Origin: Deltaproteobacteria bacterium
Lineage (GTDB): Bacteria > Myxococcota_A > UBA9042
Assembly: GCA_016218865.1 (NCBI GenBank)
Contig: JACRCU010000311.1
Location: 1 to 62,843 of the forward strand
Direction: 5' to 3'
DNA: 62,843 bases
Below the pieces are notes generated by a model, which was not told the DNA's origin, made no database searches, and was given only the letters and a program-made list of their open reading frames with translations. This document shows positions 12,135 through 45,661 of this stretch, one piece after another. The position numbers were made by a program, and so were the translations under genes. Position 1 is the first letter of the stretch. Each line of letters opens with the position of its first letter.

Positions 12135-14327
12135 TCAGCGGCTGGCGCCGGTGGCGGCGTGGGGAAGTGCGGGCGGTTCGCCAAAACGGCCTGAGGTATC
12201 GGCAACTTCGATGGTGTCGCCCCGCTGCACCGCCGCTTCGGGGACGTTCACCTTCGTCAGCACACCGCAGCCTGCCCGCAGCTCGGCCACGCGCACGTCG
12301 CCATGGCGCTGGTCCGTCGACCACGGCACGCGCAGCGACCAGTGCCCGTCTGCGCGCGCTGCACCGAACGCCAACCAGCGGTAGCCCTGATCGCCCACCT
12401 GCAGCAGCACTTCGGCGCGCGGTGTCTGTCCGGCGGCACAGCCGCGCCCCGCGAGCACCGCGCCTTGCACGCGCTCGAACACCTTCGCCCGTTCCCCTGC
12501 GGTCGCGTGGAGCAGCCGCCACTCGGGTCGGGCTGTGCAGCGTCCGTCGGGGCTGGCGCTGCCGTTGGCGTAGAAAAGCACTTGGGCGTTGCTGCACTCC
12601 GCCTCTCCGGTGAGCTTGCGGCTGCCGTCGGCAAGGTCGACCACGTAGCGATCGGCGGGCTGTCCGCGGGCGATACCGTAGGCGCGCAGCGAGGCGCCTG
12701 GAACTTGGGTCGCGATCCAGTAGCGGATGCGGTGCTGCGCGACCAGCTCGGGGCGATCGCCGCCGCCCAGGATCAGATCGGCGCAGGCGTCGAGCCCGGC
12801 CGTCTGTCCCGGGGCAATGAGCGGGCTGCACACGTTGGCCTGGCCGCCCCAAGCCAGCAGATCGTGGCCAAAGCCCCAGCCGGCCAGCACGGCGTAACTA
12901 GGCGTGCTCTGCGGGTTGTCGGCCTCGCCTGCGGCAGGCTCATGGGCGGCGAGCCAGTCCAGCGCCCGCCACACCGGCGCGCGCCGGGCCAATGGCAGCG
13001 GCCGGCTGGCCACATCGGCCAGGCCCGGGAGCAGCGCCAACGCCGCGATCGCGTAGGCGATGCCCGGCCGCCCCCGGCTCTCGGCCAGCTGCACCAGACC
13101 GGCGCCCGCCAGGACGGCCAGCGGCACCGCGGACAGCGTCGCAAACCGCTGCTGCAGCACGCCCAGCAGGACGCCGATCGCCAGCGCCGCCGCCCAGGTC
13201 ACATGCCTAGCCCGCTGCTCCCGCTGGCGCAGCGCCCAAAGCAGCAGCAACGGCGTGGCAAGTGCGGGCCAACTCAGCAGTTTCAGGGTGCCGGACCAGC
13301 CGTTTTCGGCGGCCGAGGTCGACTCGGCGATCAGCGCCACGTAACCCCTGCCCGCCACGAAGTCGCCGCCGCCGAACAGCGCGCGCCGCCCCGGCTCCCA
13401 GATCGCCAGTGCCACCGCCACCCCAGTCAGCCCTTGCGCGACCGCCCGCCAGCGCCCCAGCGGCCCGGTCTGCGCCCCAGCGCCCATCGCCAGCAGCGTC
13501 GCGGCCGCTACCCCCAACAACCCCGGCTGCAGCAGCGACAGGCCCTCGGCCACCACCGCCCCGCCGTGGCCCAGCGGCGAGGCCAGACCCCGCGGCAGGG
13601 CCAGCAGCGCCGCTGCGGCAAACACCAGCGCCAGACGCCGCGAAAATCCGCTTCGCTGCTCGGGTTCACTGGCCAGCAGCGCCAGCCCCGCCAGTCCGGC
13701 CAGCAGCGCCACCGTCATCGCCGACGACGGCCACAGCTCCAATGGCGCCGCGGTCAGAACAACCGCCAGCGCGACCCGCCCGACCCCCGCCGCCCGCTGC
13801 AGTCCCAACAGCGCCGCCAGGGCGGCAAAGGTGACGAGCGGCTCGGCGGCATGGTGGTCGATCTTGCCGACTTGCGTGTAGTTGTGCAGGCCGGGGTGGC
13901 AGGCGACCAGCAGACCTGCGACGACCATCGCCCGCACCCGCTGGGCCGCCGGCGCCAACTGCCCGGCCAGGTGGGCCGCCAGCACGGTGGTCGCCGCCGC
14001 ACAGCCGGTGACGAGCGCATACCCCGCCCATAGCACCGCGTTGCGATCGCCGCCGAGGCCGGCCGCCAGGGTCGCGCCCACCGCATCGAAGCCGTCTGGC
14101 CACACCACGACGTTGCCGGCGGGCACGTGGACCCAAGCGTCGCGGTGCAGCGGTCCGTGCCCCGCGGCTTGCCACAGCATGCGCCGAACGTGGTACCACG
14201 AGTCGCCGCTGACGGCGAACCAGCGGTCACCCCAATGCAAATCGGGCAAATTGCGCAGGCGCAGCGCCGCCGTCAGCCCCGCCAACAGCAGCAGGAGCAG
14301 CCGCGGCGGCACGGTCTTGCCCAGCAT
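12135..14327 (-). CDS. STT3/AglB/PglB-like GT-C membrane protein (oligosaccharyltransferase-like, non-canonical)
   Basis: About 13 TM segments plus a C-terminal soluble domain. GDSWYH (aa 41-46) resembles the first-loop acidic motif. KIDHHAAE is at aa 155-162. LIAE (aa 332-335) sits at the TIXE position. GWGFGH (aa 483-488) sits where WWDYG is expected. Confidence 0.6.
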   Translation of the reverse strand: MLGKTVPPRLLLLLLAGLTAALRLRNLPDLHWGDRWFAVSGDSWYHVRRMLWQAAGHGPLHRDAWVHVPAGNVVVWPDGFDAVGATLAAGLGGDRNAVLWAGYALVTGCAAATTVLAAHLAGQLAPAAQRVRAMVVAGLLVACHPGLHNYTQVGKIDHHAAEPLVTFAALAALLGLQRAAGVGRVALAVVLTAAPLELWPSSAMTVALLAGLAGLALLASEPEQRSGFSRRLALVFAAAALLALPRGLASPLGHGGAVVAEGLSLLQPGLLGVAAATLLAMGAGAQTGPLGRWRAVAQGLTGVAVALAIWEPGRRALFGGGDFVAGRGYVALIAESTSAAENGWSGTLKLLSWPALATPLLLLWALRQREQRARHVTWAAALAIGVLLGVLQQRFATLSAVPLAVLAGAGLVQLAESRGRPGIAYAIAALALLPGLADVASRPLPLARRAPVWRALDWLAAHEPAAGEADNPQSTPSYAVLAGWGFGHDLLAWGGQANVCSPLIAPGQTAGLDACADLILGGGDRPELVAQHRIRYWIATQVPGASLRAYGIARGQPADRYVVDLADGSRKLTGEAECSNAQVLFYANGSASPDGRCTARPEWRLLHATAGERAKVFERVQGAVLAGRGCAAGQTPRAEVLLQVGDQGYRWLAFGAARADGHWSLRVPWSTDQRHGDVRVAELRAGCGVLTKVNVPEAAVQRGDTIEVADTSGRFGEPPALPHAATGASR

Positions 14328-21451: not shown

Positions 21452-22495
21452 CTACGGGGTGAACAAGTACCACCACGCCGGCATCGGCGCGGGATCGCCG
21501 TCGCTGCCCGCCTGCAACTCGGCATCGGCGGCCACCGGACTCTCGCTCACCACGCCGTGGGCACTGCCAAATGCGCCCAGACCGGTGACCGGTGACCACG
21601 AGGTCCCCAGGCCCAGGGCGATCCAATTGGCCGAAATCTTGTTGAAGTCGCCGGCCGTCTTGTCTGCCAGGCCGAACCACGCACTGGCCGGCGTCTGCGC
21701 CGCGCTGGCGATCCACGCCGCCGGGCCCTGTGCCGTGCTGTCCAGCGGGCCCTGCAGCAGCACCACCCGCGCCACCTTGCGCACCTTGCCGATGAATCCG
21801 GCGTGGCCGGCGCCTTCGCCGTGGCCGACGACCACGATGTTCTGCCACAGCGGCGTGCTGCCGGCCACGTAGTTGCCCCAGCCCTGACCGGGGCGGTGCT
21901 TGACCAGCCACTGCAGGGCCAGGGCCAGGCGCTGCTCGATGCAGTTGTTGAAACCGACCTTGATCTTGTCGCTGCGGTCCTGGCCGTCGAGCACTTCGTG
22001 GCGCACGTACTCGTAGCAGGTGCTGTTCTCGCCGCACAGGCTGGCGGCGCTGGGGTTGGCGGGGTAGGCCAGACCCAGTACGCGGTGGCCGCGCTGGGCC
22101 GCCACCCACAGGATCTTTGAATAATCCTTGGGTTGCATGTTGCTGCCCGGCAGCAGCACCACCAGATCGCCGCTGCTCGGCACGGCGGGGTCGAAGATGG
22201 CCAAGTGGTCGCCGAATTCGCCGCTCACGCCCGTCTGGGTGTCGGTGGCGGGGACGAAGCTGTCGAGGGCGTCGGAGTTGGGGGCGGCGGTCGCATCGTC
22301 CGCGGTACCGCCCAGGTCGGCCGCGGCGTCGTTGGTCTTGCCGATGCCGCCGCCCGTGTCGCCCGCGAGCACGGTCGTTCCGCCGCTGCCCGGCGTGGGC
22401 ACAGGGTTCACCACACAGCCGGCCGGAATCAAGACCAGCCACCCGATCAGCCAGACCAAGGCGCGGGCCGTTGGGCGTGCGAGCGGTGCGATCAT
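21452..22495 (-). CDS. lipoprotein, alpha/beta-hydrolase-like with Ser-less nucleophile elbow
   Basis: ATG 22495 overlaps the upstream stop as ATGA (22495-22492). Lipobox LVLIPAGC followed by an acidic linker. IVVVGHGEGAG sits where GxSxG is expected. Confidence 0.65.
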   Translation of the reverse strand: MIAPLARPTARALVWLIGWLVLIPAGCVVNPVPTPGSGGTTVLAGDTGGGIGKTNDAAADLGGTADDATAAPNSDALDSFVPATDTQTGVSGEFGDHLAIFDPAVPSSGDLVVLLPGSNMQPKDYSKILWVAAQRGHRVLGLAYPANPSAASLCGENSTCYEYVRHEVLDGQDRSDKIKVGFNNCIEQRLALALQWLVKHRPGQGWGNYVAGSTPLWQNIVVVGHGEGAGHAGFIGKVRKVARVVLLQGPLDSTAQGPAAWIASAAQTPASAWFGLADKTAGDFNKISANWIALGLGTSWSPVTGLGAFGSAHGVVSESPVAADAELQAGSDGDPAPMPAWWYLFTP

Positions 22496-24396
22496 GGCGA
22501 TTCCTCTTGGGCTGCAGCAGCAACTTCTGGTGATTTTGCCAGTTCCGCCCCCATGTCGCCAGTTGCCTGGGTCGCGGGCAGACCGGCCTTGGCGTCGCTG
22601 ACGCGGTGGATCTGCGAATGCCGGCGGTCGCCGAATAGTGCACCGGGCGGTCGGCGCGGGAATTCCACAACGAAACGGGCGCCGCCCAGACTGGGGCTCC
22701 GCTCGACGCGCACGCGCCCGGCGTGGGCCTTGACGTGGCGCGCCACCGTCGCCAACCCCAGACCGGTGCCCTGCGAGCCCTTGGTGGTGTAGAACGGCTC
22801 GAAGATGCGCTCGCTGTCGGCGGGATCGATGCCGGGGCCGCTGTCGTCGACAGCCAGCTCCAGCCAATCGCCCTCGCTGCGCAGCGAGACGGCGACCTGG
22901 CGCTGTTCGACTTCTTGCACGGCGTGGGTGGCGTTGATGAGCAGGTTCCACAGCACCTGCCGCACCAGGGCGGCGTCGCCGATCAGCGTCCAGCGCTCGC
23001 CTGGGCCGTCGGGCGTGGCTGGCGGCATGAGCTGCACCCCAGTCGCCTGCACCGATGGGCTCTGCAGACACGCCTGCACCGTCTCGCACGCCAGGCTGTA
23101 CAGGTTCACCTCGCCGAACTGCAGCGGACGCGGGCGCGCAAAGTCCAGGAATTCACCGATCCACTCGGACAGCTGACCGGTCTCGCGCACCACGATGCCC
23201 ATCAGCAGCCGCTCGCTCTCGTCCAGCCGGCCCGCGCCTTGCAGCATCTGCACCGCTCCCGAAATCGACGCCAGCGGGTTGCGGATCTCGTGCGCCACCG
23301 CCGAAGCCAGCGAGCCCACCGCCGCCAAGCGCTCGCGGGCGCGATGCTCTTCTTCGCGGGCCCGGACGTCGGTCACGTCGCGCAGCACCAGCACGCGACC
23401 CCACTTGCCGCCGGGATCGCGCAACGGCGCTACGCGCACCGCCAGCATCTGCGGCTTGCCCCCGGCCGACTTGCGGGCGATCTGCTGGGTCGAATGGATG
23501 CTCTGCGGCTCGGGGCGCGCCAGCTCCCACTCGCCCGGCGGTCCGGCCAGGGCCTGCTCGATGTCGGGAACCGTCGCGGCCAGCGGGCGACCCAGCAGCT
23601 GTTGCCGGTCCATGCGCAAAATCATCTCGGCCGCCGGATTGGCCGCGGTCACCAGCCCGTTGGGGCCCACGGTAATCAAGCCGTCGGGCAGGCTGGTCAC
23701 CACATCTTCGTAGTGGACGCGCAGACTTGCCAGCTCACTGCGCTGCTGCTGCGCGCGCCGGCGGGCCCGTTCCAGCTCGCGAACCAGGTGCGAGGTCAGC
23801 ACTGCCGTGGCGTAGGCGGCGGCGACCTGCAGCGCAAGGTTGCTAGCAATCTCGAACGGTGTCGGGCTCTTGACCACCGGGAGCGCCGACAAGTACGCCA
23901 CCCGCAGCCGCGGCAGCGCCAGCCAGCCGATCTCGTCCAGCGACATCGCCACCATGCCGGCCGCCACCACACTGGCCGCCAGCAGCGAACCCAGCCTATT
24001 AAGTAGGATTGCGGCGTTGAGCACGGCCAGCGGCAAGCCGAACAGGAACAAGCTCTGCATGCCGCCGGTGGCGTGCACCAGCACCAGCGCCAGCACCTCG
24101 TCCAGCAGCACCGACGTCCAGGTCAGTCGGACCAAGAATCGGTTGTGATTCTGCCCAATTTGCGCGAGAAGCAGCAGGACGAAACTGACGCCATAGGCGA
24201 CCGCGGCCAGCTGGTACAGCAAGGTCTCGGGCGCGGCAGCGGCCTTCTGCGGCGCCATCCCCAGGTCCACGGCCACGGCAAAGGCCAGGACGCCGGTGAT
24301 GACCAGCACCCGCGCCAGCGTCGTCCACTTCAGGCGATCGACTAGGGTGTCGTCGGCCACGGCCGATTCGCCGACGGCGGGCTCCTGGTTGGGCAT
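22492..24396 (-). CDS. PilS-like sensor histidine kinase
   Basis: About 6 N-terminal TM helices, a PAS-like segment, H-box AHEIRNPLASISG, and the N/G1/G2 boxes of HATPase_c (WNLLINA, DSGPGI, GTGLGLA). It starts 6 nt downstream of pilC. Confidence 0.8.
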   Translation of the reverse strand: MPNQEPAVGESAVADDTLVDRLKWTTLARVLVITGVLAFAVAVDLGMAPQKAAAAPETLLYQLAAVAYGVSFVLLLLAQIGQNHNRFLVRLTWTSVLLDEVLALVLVHATGGMQSLFLFGLPLAVLNAAILLNRLGSLLAASVVAAGMVAMSLDEIGWLALPRLRVAYLSALPVVKSPTPFEIASNLALQVAAAYATAVLTSHLVRELERARRRAQQQRSELASLRVHYEDVVTSLPDGLITVGPNGLVTAANPAAEMILRMDRQQLLGRPLAATVPDIEQALAGPPGEWELARPEPQSIHSTQQIARKSAGGKPQMLAVRVAPLRDPGGKWGRVLVLRDVTDVRAREEEHRARERLAAVGSLASAVAHEIRNPLASISGAVQMLQGAGRLDESERLLMGIVVRETGQLSEWIGEFLDFARPRPLQFGEVNLYSLACETVQACLQSPSVQATGVQLMPPATPDGPGERWTLIGDAALVRQVLWNLLINATHAVQEVEQRQVAVSLRSEGDWLELAVDDSGPGIDPADSERIFEPFYTTKGSQGTGLGLATVARHVKAHAGRVRVERSPSLGGARFVVEFPRRPPGALFGDRRHSQIHRVSDAKAGLPATQATGDMGAELAKSPEVAAAAQEESP

Positions 24397-24402
24397 GGCG
24401 GG

Positions 24403-25611
24403 CTACTTGATGTTGTCGCCCATCGTAAAGATCGGCGCGTAGAGGGCGATCATGATGGTGCCGACGATGCCGCCCAGGACGAGCATGATGAGCGGCTCCA
24501 TCATCGACGTCATGCCATCGATGGCCTCGTCCACTTCCGAGTCGTAGAAGTCGGCGATCTTGCCCAGCATCACGTCCATGGCGCCGGTGGCCTCGCCCAC
24601 CGCGATCATCTGCACCACCATCACTGGAAAGATCTGGGTCTCCATCAGCGGGCCCGTCACGTTGCGGCCTTCCATGATCTTGTTGCGCGTGTAGTCCACG
24701 CCGCGCTCGACCACCAGGTTGCCAGACGTCTTGCCCACGATCGCCAGCGCTTCGATGATCGGCACACCGGCCGCCACCAGCGTGCCCAGGGTGCGGGTGA
24801 ACTTGGCCACCGCGCCTTTTTGCACCACGTTGCCGATGATCGGCCCGTGGAACAGCAGCCAGTCGCGGATGTACGGGCCCTGCTTGGTCTTCATCGCCAG
24901 CTTGTAGGCCACGCCCAGCGCCACCAGGCCCGCGCCCAGGAACGGCGCCTTGGCCAAGAAGCCGTCCGAGATGTCGACCACCGCCTGGGTGATGCCCGGC
25001 AGTTTGGCGCCCATCGACTGGAAGGTCGAAGCGAAACTCGGCACCACCTTCCACAACAGGCCCACGGTAATCGCCAGCGACACGGTGAGCACCGTCAGCG
25101 GGTACTTCATGGCGCCTTTGATCTTCTTCTGCGTTTCCGCGGCCTTTTCGATGTACTCGGCCAGGCGGTTCATGATGGTGTCCAAGATGCCGCCCATCTC
25201 GCCGGCCTGGACCAGGTTGACGTACAACTCTTCGAACACCTTGGGATACCGCTTGAGCGCGTCCGAAAACGACGAGCCGCCTTCCACCGACGCCTTGACG
25301 CCCAGGATGGTCTTCTTCAACTGCGGGTGCGGCTCCGAATTGCCCACCAGATCCAGCGCTTGTACCAGCGGCAGACCGGCGTCGATCATCGTCGCCATCT
25401 GCCTTGTGAAAATCACCATGTTCTTGGTGGGCACGCCGCCGCCCAGGCCGGGGATCGTCAGGTCGAGCTCGAGCTGCTTGCGCTTGAGCTTGATGATGTT
25501 GACGCCCTGCTGCTTGAGCTTGGTCCTGGCCTCGGCCTTGTTGGCGGCATCGACCTCGCCCCGGCGAAAATCACCTTCGGCGCTCGTCCCTTCCCATTGC
25601 CACATCGCCAT
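24403..25611 (-). CDS. pilC: type IV pilus platform protein PilC (GspF family)
   Basis: Two GspF repeats, with typical FTRQMATMIDAGLPLVQAL and FTRTLGTLVAAGVPIIEAL segments. Confidence 0.9.
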   Translation of the reverse strand: MAMWQWEGTSAEGDFRRGEVDAANKAEARTKLKQQGVNIIKLKRKQLELDLTIPGLGGGVPTKNMVIFTRQMATMIDAGLPLVQALDLVGNSEPHPQLKKTILGVKASVEGGSSFSDALKRYPKVFEELYVNLVQAGEMGGILDTIMNRLAEYIEKAAETQKKIKGAMKYPLTVLTVSLAITVGLLWKVVPSFASTFQSMGAKLPGITQAVVDISDGFLAKAPFLGAGLVALGVAYKLAMKTKQGPYIRDWLLFHGPIIGNVVQKGAVAKFTRTLGTLVAAGVPIIEALAIVGKTSGNLVVERGVDYTRNKIMEGRNVTGPLMETQIFPVMVVQMIAVGEATGAMDVMLGKIADFYDSEVDEAIDGMTSMMEPLIMLVLGGIVGTIMIALYAPIFTMGDNIK

Positions 25612-25639
25612 GGTGCACCCCTACCCGTCGGGCCGTTCG

Positions 25640-27379
25640 CTAGTCGTTCCGCGTCACGCGCAGCACTTCTTCCAGGGTGGTCAGGCCTTGGCGCAGCTTG
25701 TTCAGTGCCGACATGCGCAGCGTCTGCAGACCGTCTTCGATGGCCACCCGCTTGAGCTCGCCCGACGAGCTGCCCTGCAGCACCGCCTCGCGCAAGTTGT
25801 CGCTCATCGGCATGATCTCGTAGATAGCGACGCGGCCCTTGTAACCCGACTCGTTGCAGGTCTTGCACCCCACGCCCTTCATGAAACCGCCCTTCTCGTA
25901 GTCTTCTTCCGACATGCCGGCGTCGATGCAGGCGCGCTTGTCGGGCTGGAACGGCGCCTTGCACTCTGGGCAGATGCGGCGCACCAGGCGCTGGGCGGCG
26001 ATGAGGTTGAGCGCGGCCGTCACCATGAACGGTTCCACGCCCATGTTCAGCAGACGCGAAATCGTCGACGGGGCGTCGTTGGTGTGCAGGGTCGACAGCA
26101 CCATGTGGCCGGTGAGCGCGGCCTTGATGCCGATTTCCGCCGTCTCGAAGTCACGAATCTCGCCGACCATCAGCACGTCCGGGTCTTGCCGCAAGAACGA
26201 GCGGAGCACCGAGGCGAAGGTCAGGCCGATCGCGTCGTTCATCTGCACCTGGTTGATGCCTTCCAGGTTGAATTCCACGGGATCTTCGGCGGTCGAGCAG
26301 TTCTCGGACACCTTGTTCAGCTCGGTCAGCGCCGAGTACAGCGTCGTCGTCTTGCCCGAACCCGTGGGCCCCGTCACCAGCACCATGCCGAACGGCTGGT
26401 GGATGGCGTGCTTGAACTTGTCCAGCTCGCTCTGGTCGAAGCCCAGCTTGGTCATGTCGGTCTGCAGATTGGCCTTGTCCAGCAGACGCATGACCACTTT
26501 TTCGCCGAACAAGCAGGGCAACACCGACACGCGGAAGTCGCACTCCTTGCCGTCGGCCAGCTTCAGCTTGATACGGCCGTCTTGCGGCAAGCGGCGCTCG
26601 GCAATGTCGAGCTGGCTCATGATCTTGATACGGCTGACGATGGCGTTGCGCAGCTTGAGCGGCGGCCGCATGATCTCGTGCAGCACGCCGTCCACGCGGT
26701 AGCGCACCCGGAAGGCCTTCTCGTACGACTCGATGTGGATGTCCGAAGCGCGGCGCTTGATCGCGTCGATCAGGATGAGGTTCACCAGCTTGACGACGGG
26801 CGCCTCTTCCGAAGACTGCTTGAGCTCCTCGGTGTTGACGTTGTCTTCGTCCGTCATGATCTCAAGGGTTTCGCTCATCTCCTCGAAGATCTGCAGCTGA
26901 TCGACCGAGCCGTACAGCTTGCCGCGCACCTTGACGATGTCGTCCTCGGGCGCGACCACGATCTCGACGTTCAGGCCCGTCTTGAATTTCAGGTCGTCGA
27001 TGGCGTGGTAGTTGCCCGGGTCCGCCAGCGCCACCACCAGGGTGGTCCCGTGCACCGCAATCGGCAAAAGCTGGTGGCGTTCGCACAGTTCGCGCGGCAC
27101 CAAGCGGGTCACGTCGGGCGCGATCTCTACCTGGGTCAGGTCGATCGACGGCACCTGGTACTGCCGCGACAAGAAGTCGACCATCTGCGATTTGTCGACG
27201 TAGCCCAGCGCCTGCAGGGTCGAGCCCAGGTGCTTGCCGGTCTTGGCCGCCTCGGCCGCCGCATTCTTGAGCTGCTCGACCGACACCACCCGCTCGCGCA
27301 GGAGCATGTCGCCCATGCCCTTGGCGACGGCGGGCAAGTACTGCGAAGGGCGTGAACGGACGGGGGTATCGTCAGACAT
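25640..27379 (-). CDS. pilB: type IV pilus assembly ATPase PilB (GspE family)
   Basis: ATG 27379. N-terminal GSPII_E_N-type domain. Walker A GPTGSGKTT. Asp and His boxes are present. Tetracysteine CPECK...CKTC. Confidence 0.9.
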   Translation of the reverse strand: MSDDTPVRSRPSQYLPAVAKGMGDMLLRERVVSVEQLKNAAAEAAKTGKHLGSTLQALGYVDKSQMVDFLSRQYQVPSIDLTQVEIAPDVTRLVPRELCERHQLLPIAVHGTTLVVALADPGNYHAIDDLKFKTGLNVEIVVAPEDDIVKVRGKLYGSVDQLQIFEEMSETLEIMTDEDNVNTEELKQSSEEAPVVKLVNLILIDAIKRRASDIHIESYEKAFRVRYRVDGVLHEIMRPPLKLRNAIVSRIKIMSQLDIAERRLPQDGRIKLKLADGKECDFRVSVLPCLFGEKVVMRLLDKANLQTDMTKLGFDQSELDKFKHAIHQPFGMVLVTGPTGSGKTTTLYSALTELNKVSENCSTAEDPVEFNLEGINQVQMNDAIGLTFASVLRSFLRQDPDVLMVGEIRDFETAEIGIKAALTGHMVLSTLHTNDAPSTISRLLNMGVEPFMVTAALNLIAAQRLVRRICPECKAPFQPDKRACIDAGMSEEDYEKGGFMKGVGCKTCNESGYKGRVAIYEIMPMSDNLREAVLQGSSSGELKRVAIEDGLQTLRMSALNKLRQGLTTLEEVLRVTRND

Positions 27380-27624
27380 GGAGTTGAACCTCGGCGACAG
27401 CGGCACATCTGGGCACAGCCCCGCGCCAGACGGCTCGGAGCGAATCCGGCAACGGGCAACACAATGAACCATGCCGTCCGGCCTACCGGTCGGGCAGCTT
27501 CATCGCTCACACCGTAGCAGATGATGCGAAATCCGCAATCGCGCGGGCGCCAACCCAACCCCGCCGGCCGAGGCCATGTGCCGCCTCGCCGGGGAGTGAT
27601 GAGCCTGAATGTCCGGGAAAAGTC

Positions 27625-28785
27625 TTAGATGTACCAGACTTTCAGCGACTCGCTTGGGTACCAGTTCGGCGCATCCGACAGGTGAGTGCCGTCGAAGACA
27701 TCGACGTGGCCCGTGCCCGAGAAGCCGAAGATCTTGTCGAACGCCACGATGCCGCGCTTGCCGGCCACCACGGGCTCGATGTCGCGGTCAAACGTGGTCT
27801 GGAACTCGTCCGAGGTCTTGAAGCGCTTGCCGTTTGGCCACTGCTGGTGCGGTTGGCCGGCGTACTTGGTCAGGTACGTCCACATTTCTTTGGCCGACAG
27901 GATGTAGAACCAGCCGGTCTTCTTGCTGTAGGGGATGCGCCCCGGGTCCAGACCGGCCGCCTTGGCCTTCTCCTTGGTGATTTTCAAGTCGCCGCCCAGC
28001 TTGTTCAGCATGATCGACAGGCGGATCGCGCAGGTGTTGCTGTAGGCGTCCGGGCTCCAGCCTTGCTGGACCAGCAGGTCCGAGCTGGCCTGGTTCTGGC
28101 CCGAATCCTCTTGGTAGTTGTGGGGGTGTGCGTCCCACATCTTCTGGAAGTCGTCGGGCAGGCCACCGTTGCGGCTGCCGGGAGCGCCCTGGCGCGCGGC
28201 GTTGCCGCCCTGGGCCTGGGCCTGGGTCTGGCCGCCCGGAGCGGCGACGGTGGCGGCGGGCGTGCGCGGGGTGGTGGCGGCGCGCTCGGTAGCCGGGCGC
28301 GGCGTGGTCGGCGCCGAGGTCACCGCGGGCTCTTGCTCCATCGCTTCCAAGGTGATGCGGCCGAAAACGCCGGTCGCGGGCACACCGTGGGTGGCCTGCC
28401 AAGCTTTGAGCGCCTTGGTCGTGCGCGGACCCCACTGGCCATCGGCGCCGGCGGGACCGACGTCGAGACCTTGGGCCAGCAGAAACTGTTGGATGGCGCG
28501 GATGGCCGGACCCTGCGCCCCCGGGTTCAGGTAGACCTGACCGGTCGCCACGGTTTCCAGCACGTGGTCGCCGCTGAAAAGCGGCTGACGCAGCGCACCA
28601 CCGCCCGGCGCCGCGGGACGCTGCGGCTGCTGCCCTCCGGCTCCCGAAGCTGGTGCGGATCCGGGGGTGCCGCCGCCGGCCTCTTGCGGCCGCTGACGCA
28701 CTCCACTCGACACGTTGGCTTGCTGCACCCGCTGACCGGCGGCCGGCACAGGCGAACTCGACTGGGGTGGGGTGTGAACCGGCAT
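27625..28785 (-). CDS. PG_binding_1 domain fused to a Tae4-family (T6SS amidase effector 4-like) peptidoglycan amidase domain
   Basis: The PG-binding repeat is GAQGPAIRAIQQFLLAQGLDVGPAGADGQWGPRTTKALKAWQATHG. The C-terminal NTCAIRLSIMLN (Cys264, numbered from 28821) and GTGHVDVFDG match the Tae4 Cys/His motifs as I recall them (NACPIRMSYVLN, GHVTLWNG). The start is either 28785 or 28821. Confidence 0.8.
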   Translation of the reverse strand: MPVHTPPQSSSPVPAAGQRVQQANVSSGVRQRPQEAGGGTPGSAPASGAGGQQPQRPAAPGGGALRQPLFSGDHVLETVATGQVYLNPGAQGPAIRAIQQFLLAQGLDVGPAGADGQWGPRTTKALKAWQATHGVPATGVFGRITLEAMEQEPAVTSAPTTPRPATERAATTPRTPAATVAAPGGQTQAQAQGGNAARQGAPGSRNGGLPDDFQKMWDAHPHNYQEDSGQNQASSDLLVQQGWSPDAYSNTCAIRLSIMLNKLGGDLKITKEKAKAAGLDPGRIPYSKKTGWFYILSAKEMWTYLTKYAGQPHQQWPNGKRFKTSDEFQTTFDRDIEPVVAGKRGIVAFDKIFGFSGTGHVDVFDGTHLSDAPNWYPSESLKVWYI

Positions 28786-28913
28786 GGGCTTCTCCACAGC
28801 GTGCGCCGCTGCTCGCCCCAAAGTATGCCACGAATCGAGCGGTGTCGCGCGTCGCCGTCAACCCCCCCGGCACTGACCGGGGTGTCGCCGCCCCAGGGCG
28901 CGATCGACCCAGC

Positions 28914-30204: not shown

Positions 30205-30870
30205 ATGAATGAACCCGATGCGACCCGGGTGCGCGGCCGCAAACTCGGGTTCGACGTCGGCCGACTTGGTGCTATCCTGCGCCGCGGCTCCGGACGGGCA
30301 GCCGGGCAAGGGCGACGCGTGCGAGAAGAGAATCCGGCGAATCAGGGCGGAGTTGGGCTTGGTGCGCCGCCGACGCTCGAGCAGGTGCGGGCCTGGATTG
30401 CCGAGCTCGGCGCCCACCACGTGCAGAGCTTGGGACCCGCGGGGGCGCCCACGGCGGTGATCGCGTGGTACCGCACGCACCTGCAGTCGGTCGAGCTGCG
30501 CGAGGCCCACGGCCTGGTGTGGCTGAACCTGCACAGCACGTTTTGCGTGGCGCCCAAGCGGCCGGCGGCGGTACTGCCCTTGCTGGCCCACGCCAACCTG
30601 CAGATCGAGACTGGTCGCTGGTTTCGCAAGCAGCACCCGCTGCGGCTCGCTTGCAGCTACGACGTGCCGGCGGCGGGCCTGGACCAGGACGGTTTTGCCC
30701 GGCTGTGGCAGCGGTTCCACGACGATGTGCTCAGCCACGGCATCGAGATTACTCTGAAAACTCGCGGCGAGGCCTGGGTCCGCTGGCTGGCCGAGCGCGG
30801 CCGGGCCCCCAAGGGTCTGCTGGCGCGGCGGCGGCGCAAGCCGAGCCGGCCCGCTCCGGAGGCGCCGTGA
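30205..30870 (+). CDS. YbjN-like (T3SS-chaperone-fold) protein, tentative
   Basis: The coding frame is supported by the GTGA junction with the next gene. The start is uncertain (ATG 30196/30205 or further downstream). The fold assignment rests only on pattern similarity. Confidence 0.4.
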   Translation: MNEPDATRVRGRKLGFDVGRLGAILRRGSGRAAGQGRRVREENPANQGGVGLGAPPTLEQVRAWIAELGAHHVQSLGPAGAPTAVIAWYRTHLQSVELREAHGLVWLNLHSTFCVAPKRPAAVLPLLAHANLQIETGRWFRKQHPLRLACSYDVPAAGLDQDGFARLWQRFHDDVLSHGIEITLKTRGEAWVRWLAERGRAPKGLLARRRRKPSRPAPEAP

Positions 30871-31532
30871 TCGACGAACTGAACTACGATCCGCCCTGGG
30901 GCGGCGACTGGCCGGCCGACGGTCAAGCCATCGACGTGCCCAGCCCGGCGCCGTCGGCCGCCTGGGTCGCGCTGCGCCAGCAGCTGCAAGCCATCGGCTT
31001 CGAGGCCGAACCCAACATCCACCCCGAGGTCGGCCTGGTCGGCTACAGCCTGCGCGTGCGCAATGCGAGCGTCGGCGTGGGGGTGGTGCAGCGCGGCGCC
31101 GGTCTGCAACTGGCGGTCACAGCGGTGCTTTGTCGCGGCATGGACCGCGCGCGGCTGGCGCTGGCGGCCATCGACCGCGCCAATCGCGATCTGCGGCTGG
31201 GGCAGATGCTGTTCTATCCCGGGCCGCCGCCCGAGCTGGCCTTCTATTTGTCTTTGCCTTGGGAGCACTTGCGTGGTGGGTTGCTGGCACCGACGCTCAC
31301 GGCGGTGCTGCGCGAGATCGAGCAGGTCGGCTTCCCGGCGGTCGCCCTGGTGCAGGGCTATCATCCCGGCGACTTGGAACAGCTTTTTCGACAGCTGGAG
31401 GAACTGGCCGCCGCGCAACCCGCTCCGGCCGACGCCGAGGCCAGCCCCCCGCCGCTGGCCGAGCCGCCGCCGGCGCCGCGCCCCACCGCGGTGCGCAAGC
31501 GTAAGAAAATCAAGACTTCCGACCCCGACTAG
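30867..31532 (+). CDS. YbjN-like (T3SS-chaperone-fold) protein, tentative
   Basis: GTG 30867 overlaps the upstream TGA (GTGA). The pattern LVGYSLRVRNASVGVGV...LQLAVTAVL...IDRANRDLRLGQMLFY...ELAFYLSLPWE is YbjN-like. The tail is Pro/Ala-rich. Confidence 0.45.
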   Translation: MIDELNYDPPWGGDWPADGQAIDVPSPAPSAAWVALRQQLQAIGFEAEPNIHPEVGLVGYSLRVRNASVGVGVVQRGAGLQLAVTAVLCRGMDRARLALAAIDRANRDLRLGQMLFYPGPPPELAFYLSLPWEHLRGGLLAPTLTAVLREIEQVGFPAVALVQGYHPGDLEQLFRQLEELAAAQPAPADAEASPPPLAEPPPAPRPTAVRKRKKIKTSDPD

Positions 31533-43399: not shown

Positions 43400-43594
43400 T
43401 CCGCTGGCGGCGCTGCGCCGATGTGCGCGACCGGGAGCTGTCTGCGGCCGTGGTCGCCGTGCGCCGGGGCGATGGCAGTCAGGGGGCGGCAGCGTCTAAT
43501 TGCGGCATTCGCGACAGGAATTTGCAGTTGTCTCCCATTTGACACTGCAAGCGAGGGAATGGTACCGTTGCCGGGACCTCTCTGGGAGGAGATC

Positions 43595-45661
43595 ATGGGT
43601 CTTCGTTTGGTGAATCCTTTGTCGGTGCGCGGCTCTATGCCTGGTTTGGCGCGGAGCGGTGAGCGGCTGTCCAACCTGCAATCGGGCCAGAGCCTGTGGC
43701 GCGCGTCTGCGTGGCTGGCGGCGCTGCTGGCCGCCGGGCTGCTGGCTGCGTGTGGCGACGATCCGGTCACGGTTGCCGGGTCCACCGCCGACACCACGGC
43801 GAATCAGGACATCGACACCTCGGTGGGCGGCACCGACATTCAGGCGCCGCCGGACACCGCTGCCGACACCGCCGACACCACTCCGCCCGACGTGGAAGCC
43901 GACGTGCAACCCGACGTGACGCCGGACACCGCCGACACCACGGGGATGTGCCCGGGGGCCGCCGGCTGCACGTGCGCGGACGACAGCAAGTGCGACGGCG
44001 GCAAGTGCATCGACACGCCCGATGGCAAGAAGTGCGCCAAGCCGTGCGTCAAGGTCGAAGACTGCGCCAGTGGCTATGCCTGCGCCTCGCTGGGCAGCAC
44101 CGACGCCACCTCGTTCTGCGTGCCCCAGCATCTGTCGATCTGCGCGCCCTGCAACACCAACGCCGACTGCCAGGTCCAGGGCCTGCAGGACTCGTACTGC
44201 TTGGACTACGGCACGGCCGGCAAGTTCTGCGGCGGCGCCTGCACCGCGGACAGCAACTGCCCGAACGGCTACACTTGCAGCGAAGTCAAAGAGGGCACCG
44301 CCAAGCAGTGCAAGCTGAAGGACACCGCCGCCACCTGCGAGTGCAGCGCCTGGGCCAAGGCCAAGGGCGTCGAGACCACCTGCGCCGTGACCAACGACCA
44401 GGGCTCGTGCACGGCCAAGCGCAAGTGCGGTGACGCCGGCCTGGAAGCCTGCAAGGCCAAGACGCCCGCGGCCGAGACCTGCAACGCCGACGACGACAAC
44501 TGCGACGGCAAGGTCGACAACCTGGCGGCCGACTTCACCTGCTTCAAGAAGGGTTTCTTGGACTCGGGCAGCAAGACCGCCTGCACCAAAGACACCGACT
44601 GCACCACCGCCGGCGAGGCCTGCGATGAGGACGCCAAGGTCTGCAAGGTCCTGATCGGCAAGTGCCAGGGCAAGCCCCAGTGCGGCAGCAGCGGTGCACT
44701 CATTTGCGCGGAAGCGGCCATCCCGACTCAGGAAATCTGCGACGGCAAGGACAACAACTGCGACGGCAACATCGACGAAGGCTTTGCGTGGAAGAGCCCG
44801 GTCGACGGCAGCGACGTCAAGGTCGGCGCGGCTTGCGGCGTGGGCCCCTGCGCCGGCGGCACCGTGCTCTGCAAGGACAACCTGACCGCCGTTTGCACCA
44901 CCTACGCCAACGCCGCCAAGGAAAGCTGCGACGGCGCCGACAACGACTGCAACGGCCAGACCGACGACGCCGCCTGCGACGACAGCGATGCCTGCACGAT
45001 CGACGCCTGCGACGCCGCCGGCAAGAAGTGCAGCAACACCGCCAAGGACTGCGCCGACACCGACCAGTGCACCGAGGACAAGTGCGACAGCAAGACCGGC
45101 GACTGCAGCCACCCGCAGTACAGCGGCTCGTGCAGCGACGGCAATGCCTGCACGCTGGGCGACGCCTGCGGTGCCGGCGCCGGCGGCAGCTGGGTCTGCA
45201 TGTCGGGCGGCACCGCCGACAAGTGCGACGACAACAACACCTGCACCGACGACAGCTGCGACCCCGGCACCGGCTGCGTGCACCAGCCCAATGCCGCCAC
45301 CAGCCCCTGCTACACCGGCAAGGACGGCACGCAGGGCGTCGGCACCTGCAAGGGCGGCAACTACGCCTGCGCCAGCGGCCAGATCGACAAGACCAAGTGC
45401 ATTGGCGAGGTCACGCCGGCGGCCAACGAGGCCTGCGACGGCCTGGACGACAACTGCAACGGCCAGACCGACGAAGGCTGCAAGCCGACCGCCGTCACTG
45501 TGACGTTCTCGTCGGCCTACGTGTCTGGCAACACCGGCACCGACAAGAAGCTGCAGCTGCTGGTCGGCCCGTCGGGCCCGGTGGGCGCGGCGACGGGCAC
45601 CGGCAAGTACAATGTCAACTTTGGATTCCTGGCGTGGCTGATGCAGCTCATGGGCAAGTAG
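43595..45661 (+). CDS. large Cys-rich secreted lipoprotein with MopE-like CxGxDNDC(D/N)GxxDE motifs
   Basis: ATG 43595 follows GGGAGGAG. Lipobox LLAAC followed by a D/T-rich linker. There are four motifs: ETCNADDDNCDGKVDN, EICDGKDNNCDGNIDEG, ESCDGADNDCNGQTDD and EACDGLDDNCNGQTDEG. Several DxCTxDxCD modules are also present. Confidence 0.75.
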   Translation: MGLRLVNPLSVRGSMPGLARSGERLSNLQSGQSLWRASAWLAALLAAGLLAACGDDPVTVAGSTADTTANQDIDTSVGGTDIQAPPDTAADTADTTPPDVEADVQPDVTPDTADTTGMCPGAAGCTCADDSKCDGGKCIDTPDGKKCAKPCVKVEDCASGYACASLGSTDATSFCVPQHLSICAPCNTNADCQVQGLQDSYCLDYGTAGKFCGGACTADSNCPNGYTCSEVKEGTAKQCKLKDTAATCECSAWAKAKGVETTCAVTNDQGSCTAKRKCGDAGLEACKAKTPAAETCNADDDNCDGKVDNLAADFTCFKKGFLDSGSKTACTKDTDCTTAGEACDEDAKVCKVLIGKCQGKPQCGSSGALICAEAAIPTQEICDGKDNNCDGNIDEGFAWKSPVDGSDVKVGAACGVGPCAGGTVLCKDNLTAVCTTYANAAKESCDGADNDCNGQTDDAACDDSDACTIDACDAAGKKCSNTAKDCADTDQCTEDKCDSKTGDCSHPQYSGSCSDGNACTLGDACGAGAGGSWVCMSGGTADKCDDNNTCTDDSCDPGTGCVHQPNAATSPCYTGKDGTQGVGTCKGGNYACASGQIDKTKCIGEVTPAANEACDGLDDNCNGQTDEGCKPTAVTVTFSSAYVSGNTGTDKKLQLLVGPSGPVGAATGTGKYNVNFGFLAWLMQLMGK

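Follow-up and report, generated by a model that had tools for sequence, protein, structure and literature searches.

Introduction

To our knowledge, every characterised Tae4 peptidoglycan amidase is a small cargo protein of a type VI secretion system (T6SS) and is paired with a Tai4 immunity protein. Without exception, the Tae4 proteins characterised so far act as toxins between bacteria (PMC3695027, PMC6277958). Two forms of the catalytic triad have been described: in Ec/St-type enzymes (Cys46/His128/Asp139) the Asp lies at His+11, and in Sm/At-type enzymes (Cys50/His133/Asp135 and Cys47/His131/Asp133) it lies at His+2 (PMC6277958). For the extracellular contractile injection systems (eCIS), DUF4157 is the signature domain of the associated toxins, and the leaders of eCIS cargo are N-terminal segments that are hydrophilic and favour disorder (PMC11297309). 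During contact killing by myxobacteria, prey peptidoglycan is degraded locally by effectors that are not known; the effectors of the Kil and T3SS* machines (the latter a needle-less type III secretion system, T3SS) are likewise unknown, and these machines act on prey only (PMC8460266, PMC10433427). Here we describe a tae4 gene on a 62.8-kb stretch of DNA from an uncultured member of the Myxococcota (Deltaproteobacteria bacterium, contig JACRCU010000311.1; the whole stretch is referred to below as the window). The gene encodes a Tae4 catalytic domain joined to a peptidoglycan-binding module, and we lean towards its product being an injected or contact-delivered antibacterial wall hydrolase.

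Results and Discussion

A Tae4-type enzyme joined to a peptidoglycan-binding module

The open reading frame (ORF) of the original prediction, 27625..28821 (-), is present in the sequence. Its listed start, a TTG at 28821, probably precedes the real one by 12 codons. Translation very probably begins at ATG 28785, inside the listed frame, because a GGAG lies 6 nt upstream and because matching Met starts are found in a database protein of 92% identity (P0001) and in the orthologues of loci L006 and L007, all of which begin MP(V/A)HTPPQ. Residue numbers given here are those of the resulting 386-amino-acid (aa) protein, and the coordinates of its parts are collected in Table 1. A mis-called start that hides a signal peptide was considered and rejected: upstream of 28821 the frame is not open, and in all orthologues the start reads MP.. 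or MVWGP followed by Q/P-rich sequence.

That the gene encodes a Tae4-family amidase fused to a peptidoglycan-binding domain, as had been predicted, was borne out by Pfam, by Foldseek and by the aligned triad. In Pfam searches with the window protein, the Tae4 profile PF14113 scored 54.5 bits against a cutoff of 27 (E 1.6e-14), and PG_binding_1 (PF01471) scored 49.5 bits against a cutoff of 23; further, a profile of the clade matched the Tae4 structure 6ijf at E 6e-11. An AlphaFold2 model built on 17 family members contained two confident domains, residues 63-157 (predicted local distance difference test, pLDDT, ~70-95) and 206-386 (pLDDT ~80-95), and two low-confidence segments, residues 1-62 and 158-205. 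The modelled catalytic domain resembles solved Tae4/Ssp1 structures: in a Foldseek search of the PDB the top 11 matches were all Tae4/Ssp1 (6ijf, 4jur, 4j30, 4hff, 4hfl, 4bi3 and 4hfk among them), with E values of 2.5e-7 to 6e-6 and target-normalised TM scores of 0.63-0.73, the best being 6ijf_C (E 2.5e-7, TM 0.73). The peptidoglycan-binding module matched phiKZ gp144, SleB, SleC and CtpB. Two details of the predicted architecture had to be revised. The disordered N-terminus, given as ~95 aa, is only ~62 aa long, the next block belonging to the peptidoglycan-binding unit, and what had been called a PG_binding_1 repeat is a single domain. The block 'PGGGAL..PLFSGDHVLE' is an N-terminal extension of that unit, and in P0069 the two are duplicated together. 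The idea that 'PLFSGDHVLE' is a separate secretion motif was rejected on account of this joint duplication.

The hallmark strings of the original prediction, NTCAIRLSIMLN, GTGHVDVFDG and WFYILSAKEMWTYLTKYAGQP, were all found, and in alignments they fall on the regions around the catalytic Cys and His of solved Tae4 enzymes. His360 and Asp362 are invariant in the family alignments and in register with the GHID of AtTae4 and Ssp1; Asp371 is kept in at least 90% of orthologues, with Ala in its place in P0038. The triad match is one of sequence register in HMMER alignments against AtTae4, Ssp1 and EcTae4, as distinct from an atomic superposition. Because Cys252, His360 and Asp362 are invariant and in register with known catalytic residues, the enzyme looks catalytically competent, and by analogy with characterised Tae4 enzymes the bond cleaved is expected to be gamma-D-Glu-meso-diaminopimelate (mDAP). 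The ratio of nonsynonymous to synonymous substitution rates (dN/dS), calculated against the syntenic orthologue of L006, was 0.087 for the whole gene, and within it 0.032 for the Tae4 domain and 0.037 for the peptidoglycan-binding module vs 0.16 for the leader and 0.32 for the linker. Given these values, the folded domains are under strong purifying selection in the window's lineage, in which the gene has no adjacent partner.

The lack of a Sec or Tat signal was also upheld, the maximal 15-residue Kyte-Doolittle mean being only 0.43 over the first 95 residues. The leader has no hydrophobic core, its first 34 aa contain no acidic residue, and the Kyte-Doolittle mean over the first 35 aa is -0.90. 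No hydrophobic N-terminus and no Sec or Tat signal was found among ~45 full-length orthologues, which begin MPTPQ, MPEQQ, MPVPQ or MVWGP and continue with a Q/P/G-rich segment of variable length; leader and linker lengths both differ among orthologues. The Sec or lipoprotein signal of a housekeeping periplasmic NlpC/P60 endopeptidase of the MepS/Spr type was likewise absent from the protein and from these ~45 orthologues. As judged from its sequence, the identity of the protein as a Tae4-type enzyme joined to a wall-binding module, with no export signal, is secure.

Table 1. Features of the tae4 gene and its spacer in the window, and partner genes at related loci
Feature	Coordinates	Strand	Description
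Complete tae4 gene	27625..28785	-	386 codons + stop: leader, PG_binding_1 module, linker, Tae4 domain
Putative Shine-Dalgarno sequence, GGAG	28792..28795	-	6 nt upstream of ATG 28785; read from sequence
Disordered leader	28600..28785	-	Residues 1-62; P/G/Q/A-rich, hydrophilic; pLDDT <50, dN/dS 0.16
Peptidoglycan-binding module	28315..28599	-	Residues 63-157; 'GGAL..PLFSGDHVLE' extension + PG_binding_1
Disordered linker	28171..28314	-	Residues 158-205, 48 aa; A/T/P/G-rich; pLDDT <50, dN/dS 0.32, GC 0.85
Tae4 (NlpC/P60 papain-like) catalytic domain	27625..28170	-	Residues 206-386 + stop; Pfam, Foldseek, dN/dS 0.032
Predicted catalytic Cys252 codon (NTCAIR)	28030..28032	-	Invariant; aligned to catalytic Cys of AtTae4, Ssp1, EcTae4, StTae4
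His360-Val361-Asp362 codons (GHVD)	27700..27708	-	Predicted catalytic His + His+2 Asp of Sm/At-type triad
Asp371 codon (LSD)	27673..27675	-	His+11 position of Ec/St-type triad; aligned to SD of EcTae4
tae4-pilB spacer, non-coding	27380..27624	-	245 nt; no WG-repeat/immunity gene or remnant
Promoter-like block CGATTGCGGATTTCGCATCATCTGCTACGGTGTGA	27507..27541	-	35 nt, TTGCGG-16 nt-TACGGT; 100% identical in window, L006, L007
WG partner loci	L001:11121-12038; also L008, L010, L011, L013-L016, L018, L021, L023, L027, L028, L030, L057
Sister-clade small-gene loci	L041-43, L046-49, L051, L052, L058; e.g. L046:10633-11364

Relatives and their partner genes

The protein database contained 118 relatives, about 45 of which share the PG_binding_1 plus Tae4 architecture; in the remainder the Tae4 domain follows PF13699 (DUF4157, now eCIS_core) or a short leader. 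The exact window protein had no entry in the contig index. Among species-representative genomes 52 loci came to light, nearly all of them in metagenome-assembled genomes (MAGs) of Myxococcota, with no cultured organism among them and with many from lakes (Baikal, Erken, Loclat, Mendota, Zurich, Thun). Automatic annotation already covers the architecture, one database label being 'T6SS amidase effector protein 4 / putative peptidoglycan binding domain', and no study of it was found in the literature. Within sub-clades synteny is conserved and inheritance vertical, the neighbourhoods being those of the core genome. One sub-clade (L004, L019, L020, L022, L024) always follows SMC, and in L001 the gene follows def. 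Five MAG records (L009, L017, L022, L026, L029) are titled 'uncultured Enterobacteriaceae bacterium' yet carry a Myxococcota-type peptidoglycan-binding Tae4. Two of them, L009 and L022, coincide in contig with Myxococcota-type loci (L001; the contig of P0024), and the Enterobacteriaceae labels look generic or wrong.

The gene had been described as an orphan. As to the window this description stands: no immunity gene is adjacent, the 245 nt downstream at 27380-27624 contain only ORFs of 35 aa or less, no signal-bearing small ORF was found in the gaps of the window, and a tblastn search for a homologue or remnant of the partner described below gave at best E 0.055 in the window. The orphan state is, however, a derived one. 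De novo clustering of neighbouring genes at the related loci brought out a recurrent downstream gene of 305-355 aa on the same strand, which in most loci starts 0-36 nt past the Tae4 stop and whose product is made up of seven WG_beta_rep repeats (PF14903; E 6e-85 in L001 and 1.5e-75 in L023). Among 26 loci of the peptidoglycan-binding type with enough downstream sequence, 15 have this WG partner and 11 do not. On a neighbour-joining tree of Tae4 domains the partner occurs in most sub-branches, including L008 and L018, which are closest to the window's branch. By parsimony, therefore, the partner is ancestral, and its losses fall in the branch that unites the window with L006, in L007, in the sub-clade that follows SMC and at a few more loci.

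Distances among the Tae4 domains correlate with those among the WG partners (Mantel r 0.79, a value reached by 0 of 5000 permutations), and the partner diverges about twice as fast (mean distance 0.62 vs 0.30). A lipoprotein signal followed by a linker is present in 4 of the 15 partners (L021, L023, L027, L028), and the other 11 have no signal. No description of WG_beta_rep as an immunity or accessory family was found in the literature, the one paper retrieved being an unrelated structural-modelling study. We consider the WG partner a candidate immunity protein, inhibitor or chaperone. We propose that the ancestral gene was bicistronic with it and that the window's lineage lost or relocated the partner when the gene settled between dnaJ and pilB.

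In the sister clade the catalytic domain, 50-64% identical, follows PF13699/DUF4157 or stands alone. At 10 loci (Table 1) the Tae4 stop is overlapped, or followed at a short distance, by a gene of 180-270 aa, the product of which in most cases has a lipoprotein or Sec signal. This small-gene family has no Pfam or NCBIfam match, and no homologue of it was found in the window (best tblastn E 0.11). The family probably confers Tae4 immunity and would then be a new one, not related to Tai4. The sister clade behaves like a toxin-immunity system. In a Kofleriaceae MAG (L058:10001-15538) an eCIS_core plus Tae4 gene, a 157-aa ORF, an eCIS_core plus VanY gene (955 aa) and a 174-aa ORF form a tandem two-effector array far from eCIS structural genes. 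All six annotated loci of the clade lie among housekeeping genes, and none, the eCIS_core-tagged ones included, has injection-system genes within 10 kb. Because even the tagged loci are so placed, a remote location is the rule in the clade. The effector loci of the M. xanthus T6SS are likewise dispersed over the chromosome (PMC10433427). The location of the window gene is thus no obstacle to the delivered-toxin reading given below.

Proposed role

With moderate confidence we favour, as the best account of the window protein, an antibacterial hydrolase of the cell wall that is injected or delivered on contact, independently of Sec, by a machine whose genes lie elsewhere. The protein would be made in the cytoplasm, and its disordered N-terminus would load it into an injection or contact-dependent machine encoded at another place in the genome. 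Candidates for this machine are the contractile systems T6SS and eCIS and another kind of myxobacterial apparatus for killing on contact, that of the Kil or T3SS* type. After delivery into the periplasm of other bacteria, the peptidoglycan-binding module would anchor the protein to the sacculus and Cys252/His360/Asp362 would cleave the peptide stems, leading to lysis. Several observations favour this reading. A protein that binds and is predicted to cut peptidoglycan, and that lacks a signal in ~45 species, should leave the cytoplasm by a route other than Sec or Tat. Its closest catalytic relatives carry a marker of injection-system cargo and have signal-bearing partners, all characterised Tae4 proteins are injected interbacterial toxins, and the ancestral form was apparently bicistronic with a faster-evolving partner. 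The window protein would then belong to a Myxococcota-specific clade of Sec-independent antibacterial cell-wall toxins. Three hypotheses had been offered in the original prediction; of these, the exported antibacterial lysin fits best, the pilB/pilC-dedicated enzyme is contradicted by synteny, and the autolysin survives as a weaker rival.

Several points weigh against a delivered toxin. The reported lack of T6SS genes in the window was confirmed by Pfam scans of ~55 ORFs, which revealed no T6SS (Hcp, VgrG, PAAR, Tss), eCIS or phage family, and there is no injection-system gene within 10 kb of the relatives examined. The protein itself bears no MIX, FIX, RIX, PAAR, VgrG or DUF4157 delivery marker. 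Eleven loci, the window included, have no adjacent partner, which would be dangerous for a T6SS effector fired at kin. Where the WG partner is present, the 11 of 15 copies without a signal are expected to be cytoplasmic, which is atypical for immunity to an enzyme that acts in the periplasm. The stable core-genome position and the vertical inheritance within sub-clades would also fit a housekeeping role. Finally, the delivered-toxin role is a prediction, as are enzyme activity and secretion.

Alternative explanations

A self-directed autolysin or remodelling enzyme, turned on the sacculus of the producer itself, for example during programmed lysis, a step of differentiation or the release of vesicles or particles, is possible but rather unlikely. 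Such an enzyme might gain access to the wall by way of a holin-like protein or upon lysis, and the WG partner or some other control might restrain it. The core-genome position among housekeeping genes, with synteny kept within sub-clades, would suit it, as would the strong purifying selection despite the absent partner and the repeated partner loss (11 of 26 loci, the window among them). A mostly signal-less WG partner would meet the enzyme in the cytoplasm, like a pre-release inhibitor, and PG_binding_1 plus a catalytic domain without a signal peptide is the layout of holin-dependent lysins. However, no holin-like or lysis-cassette gene is adjacent in the window or at the six annotated loci, every Tae4 protein characterised so far is a toxin aimed at other bacteria (PMC3695027, PMC6277958), and the nearest catalytic relatives, eCIS_core-tagged effectors with lipoprotein immunity-like genes, point to antagonism and not to housekeeping. 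It is more doubtful, though it deserves mention, that the peptidoglycan-binding Tae4 is the cargo of a non-T6SS contact-killing machine of myxobacteria (Kil/Tad-like or needle-less T3SS*) assembled only against prey, and that the WG partner is a new class of cytoplasmic inhibitor or loading chaperone, re-targeted in some lineages as a lipoprotein immunity factor. Because such a prey-only machine would make immunity dispensable, it would explain the loss of the partner in the window's lineage and in ~40% of loci. Yet another role is recycling of murein peptides in the cytoplasm, where a leaderless gamma-D-Glu-mDAP endopeptidase would act on imported muropeptides by analogy with the YkfC-type NlpC/P60 enzymes. 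The lack of an export signal in every orthologue and the housekeeping neighbours agree with such recycling, but a peptidoglycan-binding module on a 48-aa flexible linker behind a 62-aa disordered leader is a targeting rather than a metabolic architecture. There is also no permease, LdcA, Mpl or AmpG type gene among the conserved neighbours, and the sister clade has a toxin-delivery marker domain and signal-bearing partners; we regard recycling as distinctly improbable.

The proximity to pilB raised the question of a dedicated peptidoglycan-remodelling enzyme that opens the wall for the type IV pilus machine (pilB/pilC). The tae4 gene shares its strand with pilB-pilC-pilS and ends 245 nt before pilB, but the order dnaJ-tae4-pilB-pilC-pilS was found in only 3 of 29 loci: the window, L006 (Tae4 87% identical, PilB 98%) and L007 (Tae4 74% identical). 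Loci with a protein of 77% identity (L008, L018, L032) already have it at other genomic positions, and no other pil gene recurs among the neighbours. Further, the spacer contains a fully conserved promoter-like block (Table 1), probably a promoter or operator of pilB itself, and the spacer flanking it has diverged among the window, L006 and L007. The limited synteny and the separate block make the pilB adjacency a lineage-specific juxtaposition. Since the protein has, in addition, no signal peptide with which to reach the periplasm, where the pilus machine is assembled, a pilus role is hardly credible and the functional link to pilB is effectively refuted. Just as remote is descent from a phage endolysin of the modular Gram-negative layout seen in phiKZ gp144, domesticated from a decayed prophage. 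An N-terminal PG_binding_1 followed by a catalytic domain, without a signal peptide, is the modular endolysin order, and the module matches those of phiKZ gp144 and the AP3 endolysin. Against this, no relative was found in 2.9 million viral contigs, viral structures in BFVD matched the 66-residue peptidoglycan-binding module alone and never the Tae4 domain, and the sole phage Tae4 match, at 27% identity, was a PAAR-linked T6SS cassette. The window has no phage genes, tRNA or integrase, and the GC content at third codon positions (GC3) of the gene equals that of host genes. Viral contigs, BFVD and phage genomes having given only the module and that one cassette, a phage endolysin origin was rejected.

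The phage cassette is that of the P2-like Burkholderia phage ST79 (L062, NC_021343.1 32312-33828), in which PAAR, Tae4 and a small ORF lie beside tail genes; by its gene content it is a phage-borne T6SS module and not a lysis gene. The lower GC content that had been seen in the domain-coding part of tae4 is real, 0.62 vs 0.69-0.85 in the rest of the gene. The dip stems from codon positions 1 and 2 and reflects amino-acid composition. It is not a sign of foreign DNA, because the GC3 of the Tae4 part, 0.91, is identical to that of pilB and pilC; horizontal transfer as its cause was rejected on the same ground.

Genes around tae4

The Pfam content of the window is limited to housekeeping and envelope genes. 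Among these are an ABC exporter, hisS, an arginase-family gene, MlaC, a TolC-like OEP, pilS-pilC-pilB, dnaJ, a peptidase_MA protein, gap-pgk-tpi, dapD, serS, a metH-like gene, eno, a nitrilase-family gene, giant TPR proteins and an ABC auxiliary protein. No tRNA, integrase or Rfam match was found in the window.

The pilus cluster, 21452-27379 (-), runs pilB-pilC-pilS; pilT is missing between pilB and pilC, and the place after pilS is taken not by pilR but by a 362-aa ORF that has a lipoprotein-like N-terminus and matches no Pfam family. Divergent from dnaJ are two ORFs, 30250-30870 (+) and 30873-31532 (+), which are conserved in L006 and L007 and for which sequence searches of Pfam, NCBIfam and the PDB gave no match. 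A model built from a single sequence had a pLDDT of 48, and its best relevant Foldseek match was the T3SS chaperone pair SycN-YscB (E 0.02), an unconfirmed hint at a T3SS-chaperone-like function. A 730-aa protein encoded at 12135-14327 (-) has a C-terminal match to the peripheral domain of the archaeal oligosaccharyltransferase AglB_L1, and a 746-aa protein encoded at 43421-45661 (+) has MopE metal-binding and Dictyostelium CTDC Cys-rich repeats.

Significance and comparison with known systems

In Myxococcota the Tae4 module has been redeployed in three architectures, one with a peptidoglycan-binding module, one tagged with eCIS_core and one bare. The domain architecture is new, as are two undescribed partner families (the WG-repeat protein and the Pfam-less lipoprotein) and the repeated loss of the partner, a loss that makes one ask how cells tolerate a wall-cutting enzyme to which no immunity gene is linked. 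The 'T6SS effector' label in Pfam does not prove delivery by a T6SS. Were export by a contractile or contact-dependent machine to be borne out, these proteins would be candidates for the weapons with which uncultured predatory bacteria, many of them lake-dwelling, degrade cell walls.

The nearest described systems are the Tae4/Tai4 pairs of T6SSs: Tae4 of S. Typhimurium and E. cloacae, Ssp1/Rap of S. marcescens and Tae4-Tai4 of A. tumefaciens. The window protein has the same fold and Pfam family as these effectors and, like them, no signal peptide. Its triad aligns with theirs, the invariant Asp being at His+2 as in the Sm/At type and a second Asp at the Ec/St position, His+11. It differs in its length, 386 aa vs ~160 aa, having gained a PG_binding_1 module, a disordered leader and a linker, and it lacks the Cys pair that forms a disulfide near the active site of the At and Ec enzymes. 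Its locus also differs, in that there is no Tai4-like helical immunity gene, the inferred ancestral partner being a WG_beta_rep protein that is absent here, and no T6SS, PAAR, VgrG or Hcp gene is nearby. The hosts, unlike those of the Tae4/Tai4 pairs, are uncultured Myxococcota.

The eCIS toxins with DUF4157 (Geller 2021; Danov 2024, PMC11297309) are approached most closely by the sister-clade proteins, in which DUF4157 precedes Tae4 and immunity-like genes lie downstream. The N-terminus of the window protein, hydrophilic and predicted to be disordered, may resemble eCIS leaders, the Kyte-Doolittle sum of its first 35 aa being -31.5 vs -36.9 quoted for Pdp1 (PMC11297309). Unlike the eCIS toxins it has no DUF4157, PF13699 giving no match on the protein or its neighbours, and no eCIS operon lies within the window. 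The aromatic residue typical of the first eight positions of eCIS leaders is absent from it but present in the MVWGP and MPTF sub-clades.

With the modular phage endolysins (phiKZ gp144/KZ144 and that of Burkholderia AP3) the window protein shares an N-terminal PG_binding_1, a C-terminal hydrolase and the lack of a signal peptide, and the peptidoglycan-binding modules superpose at a root-mean-square deviation of 1-2 A. It departs from them in its Tae4 catalytic domain, which replaces a transglycosylase or muramidase, in its long disordered leader and linker, and in having neither phage context nor viral relatives. Lastly, although the window protein has no VgrG spike fusion and its catalytic fold is different, its peptidoglycan-binding module matches that of the VgrG3-type T6SS effectors of V. 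cholerae (PDB 4nso), in which peptidoglycan binding and wall degradation are combined in an effector whose delivery is Sec-free.

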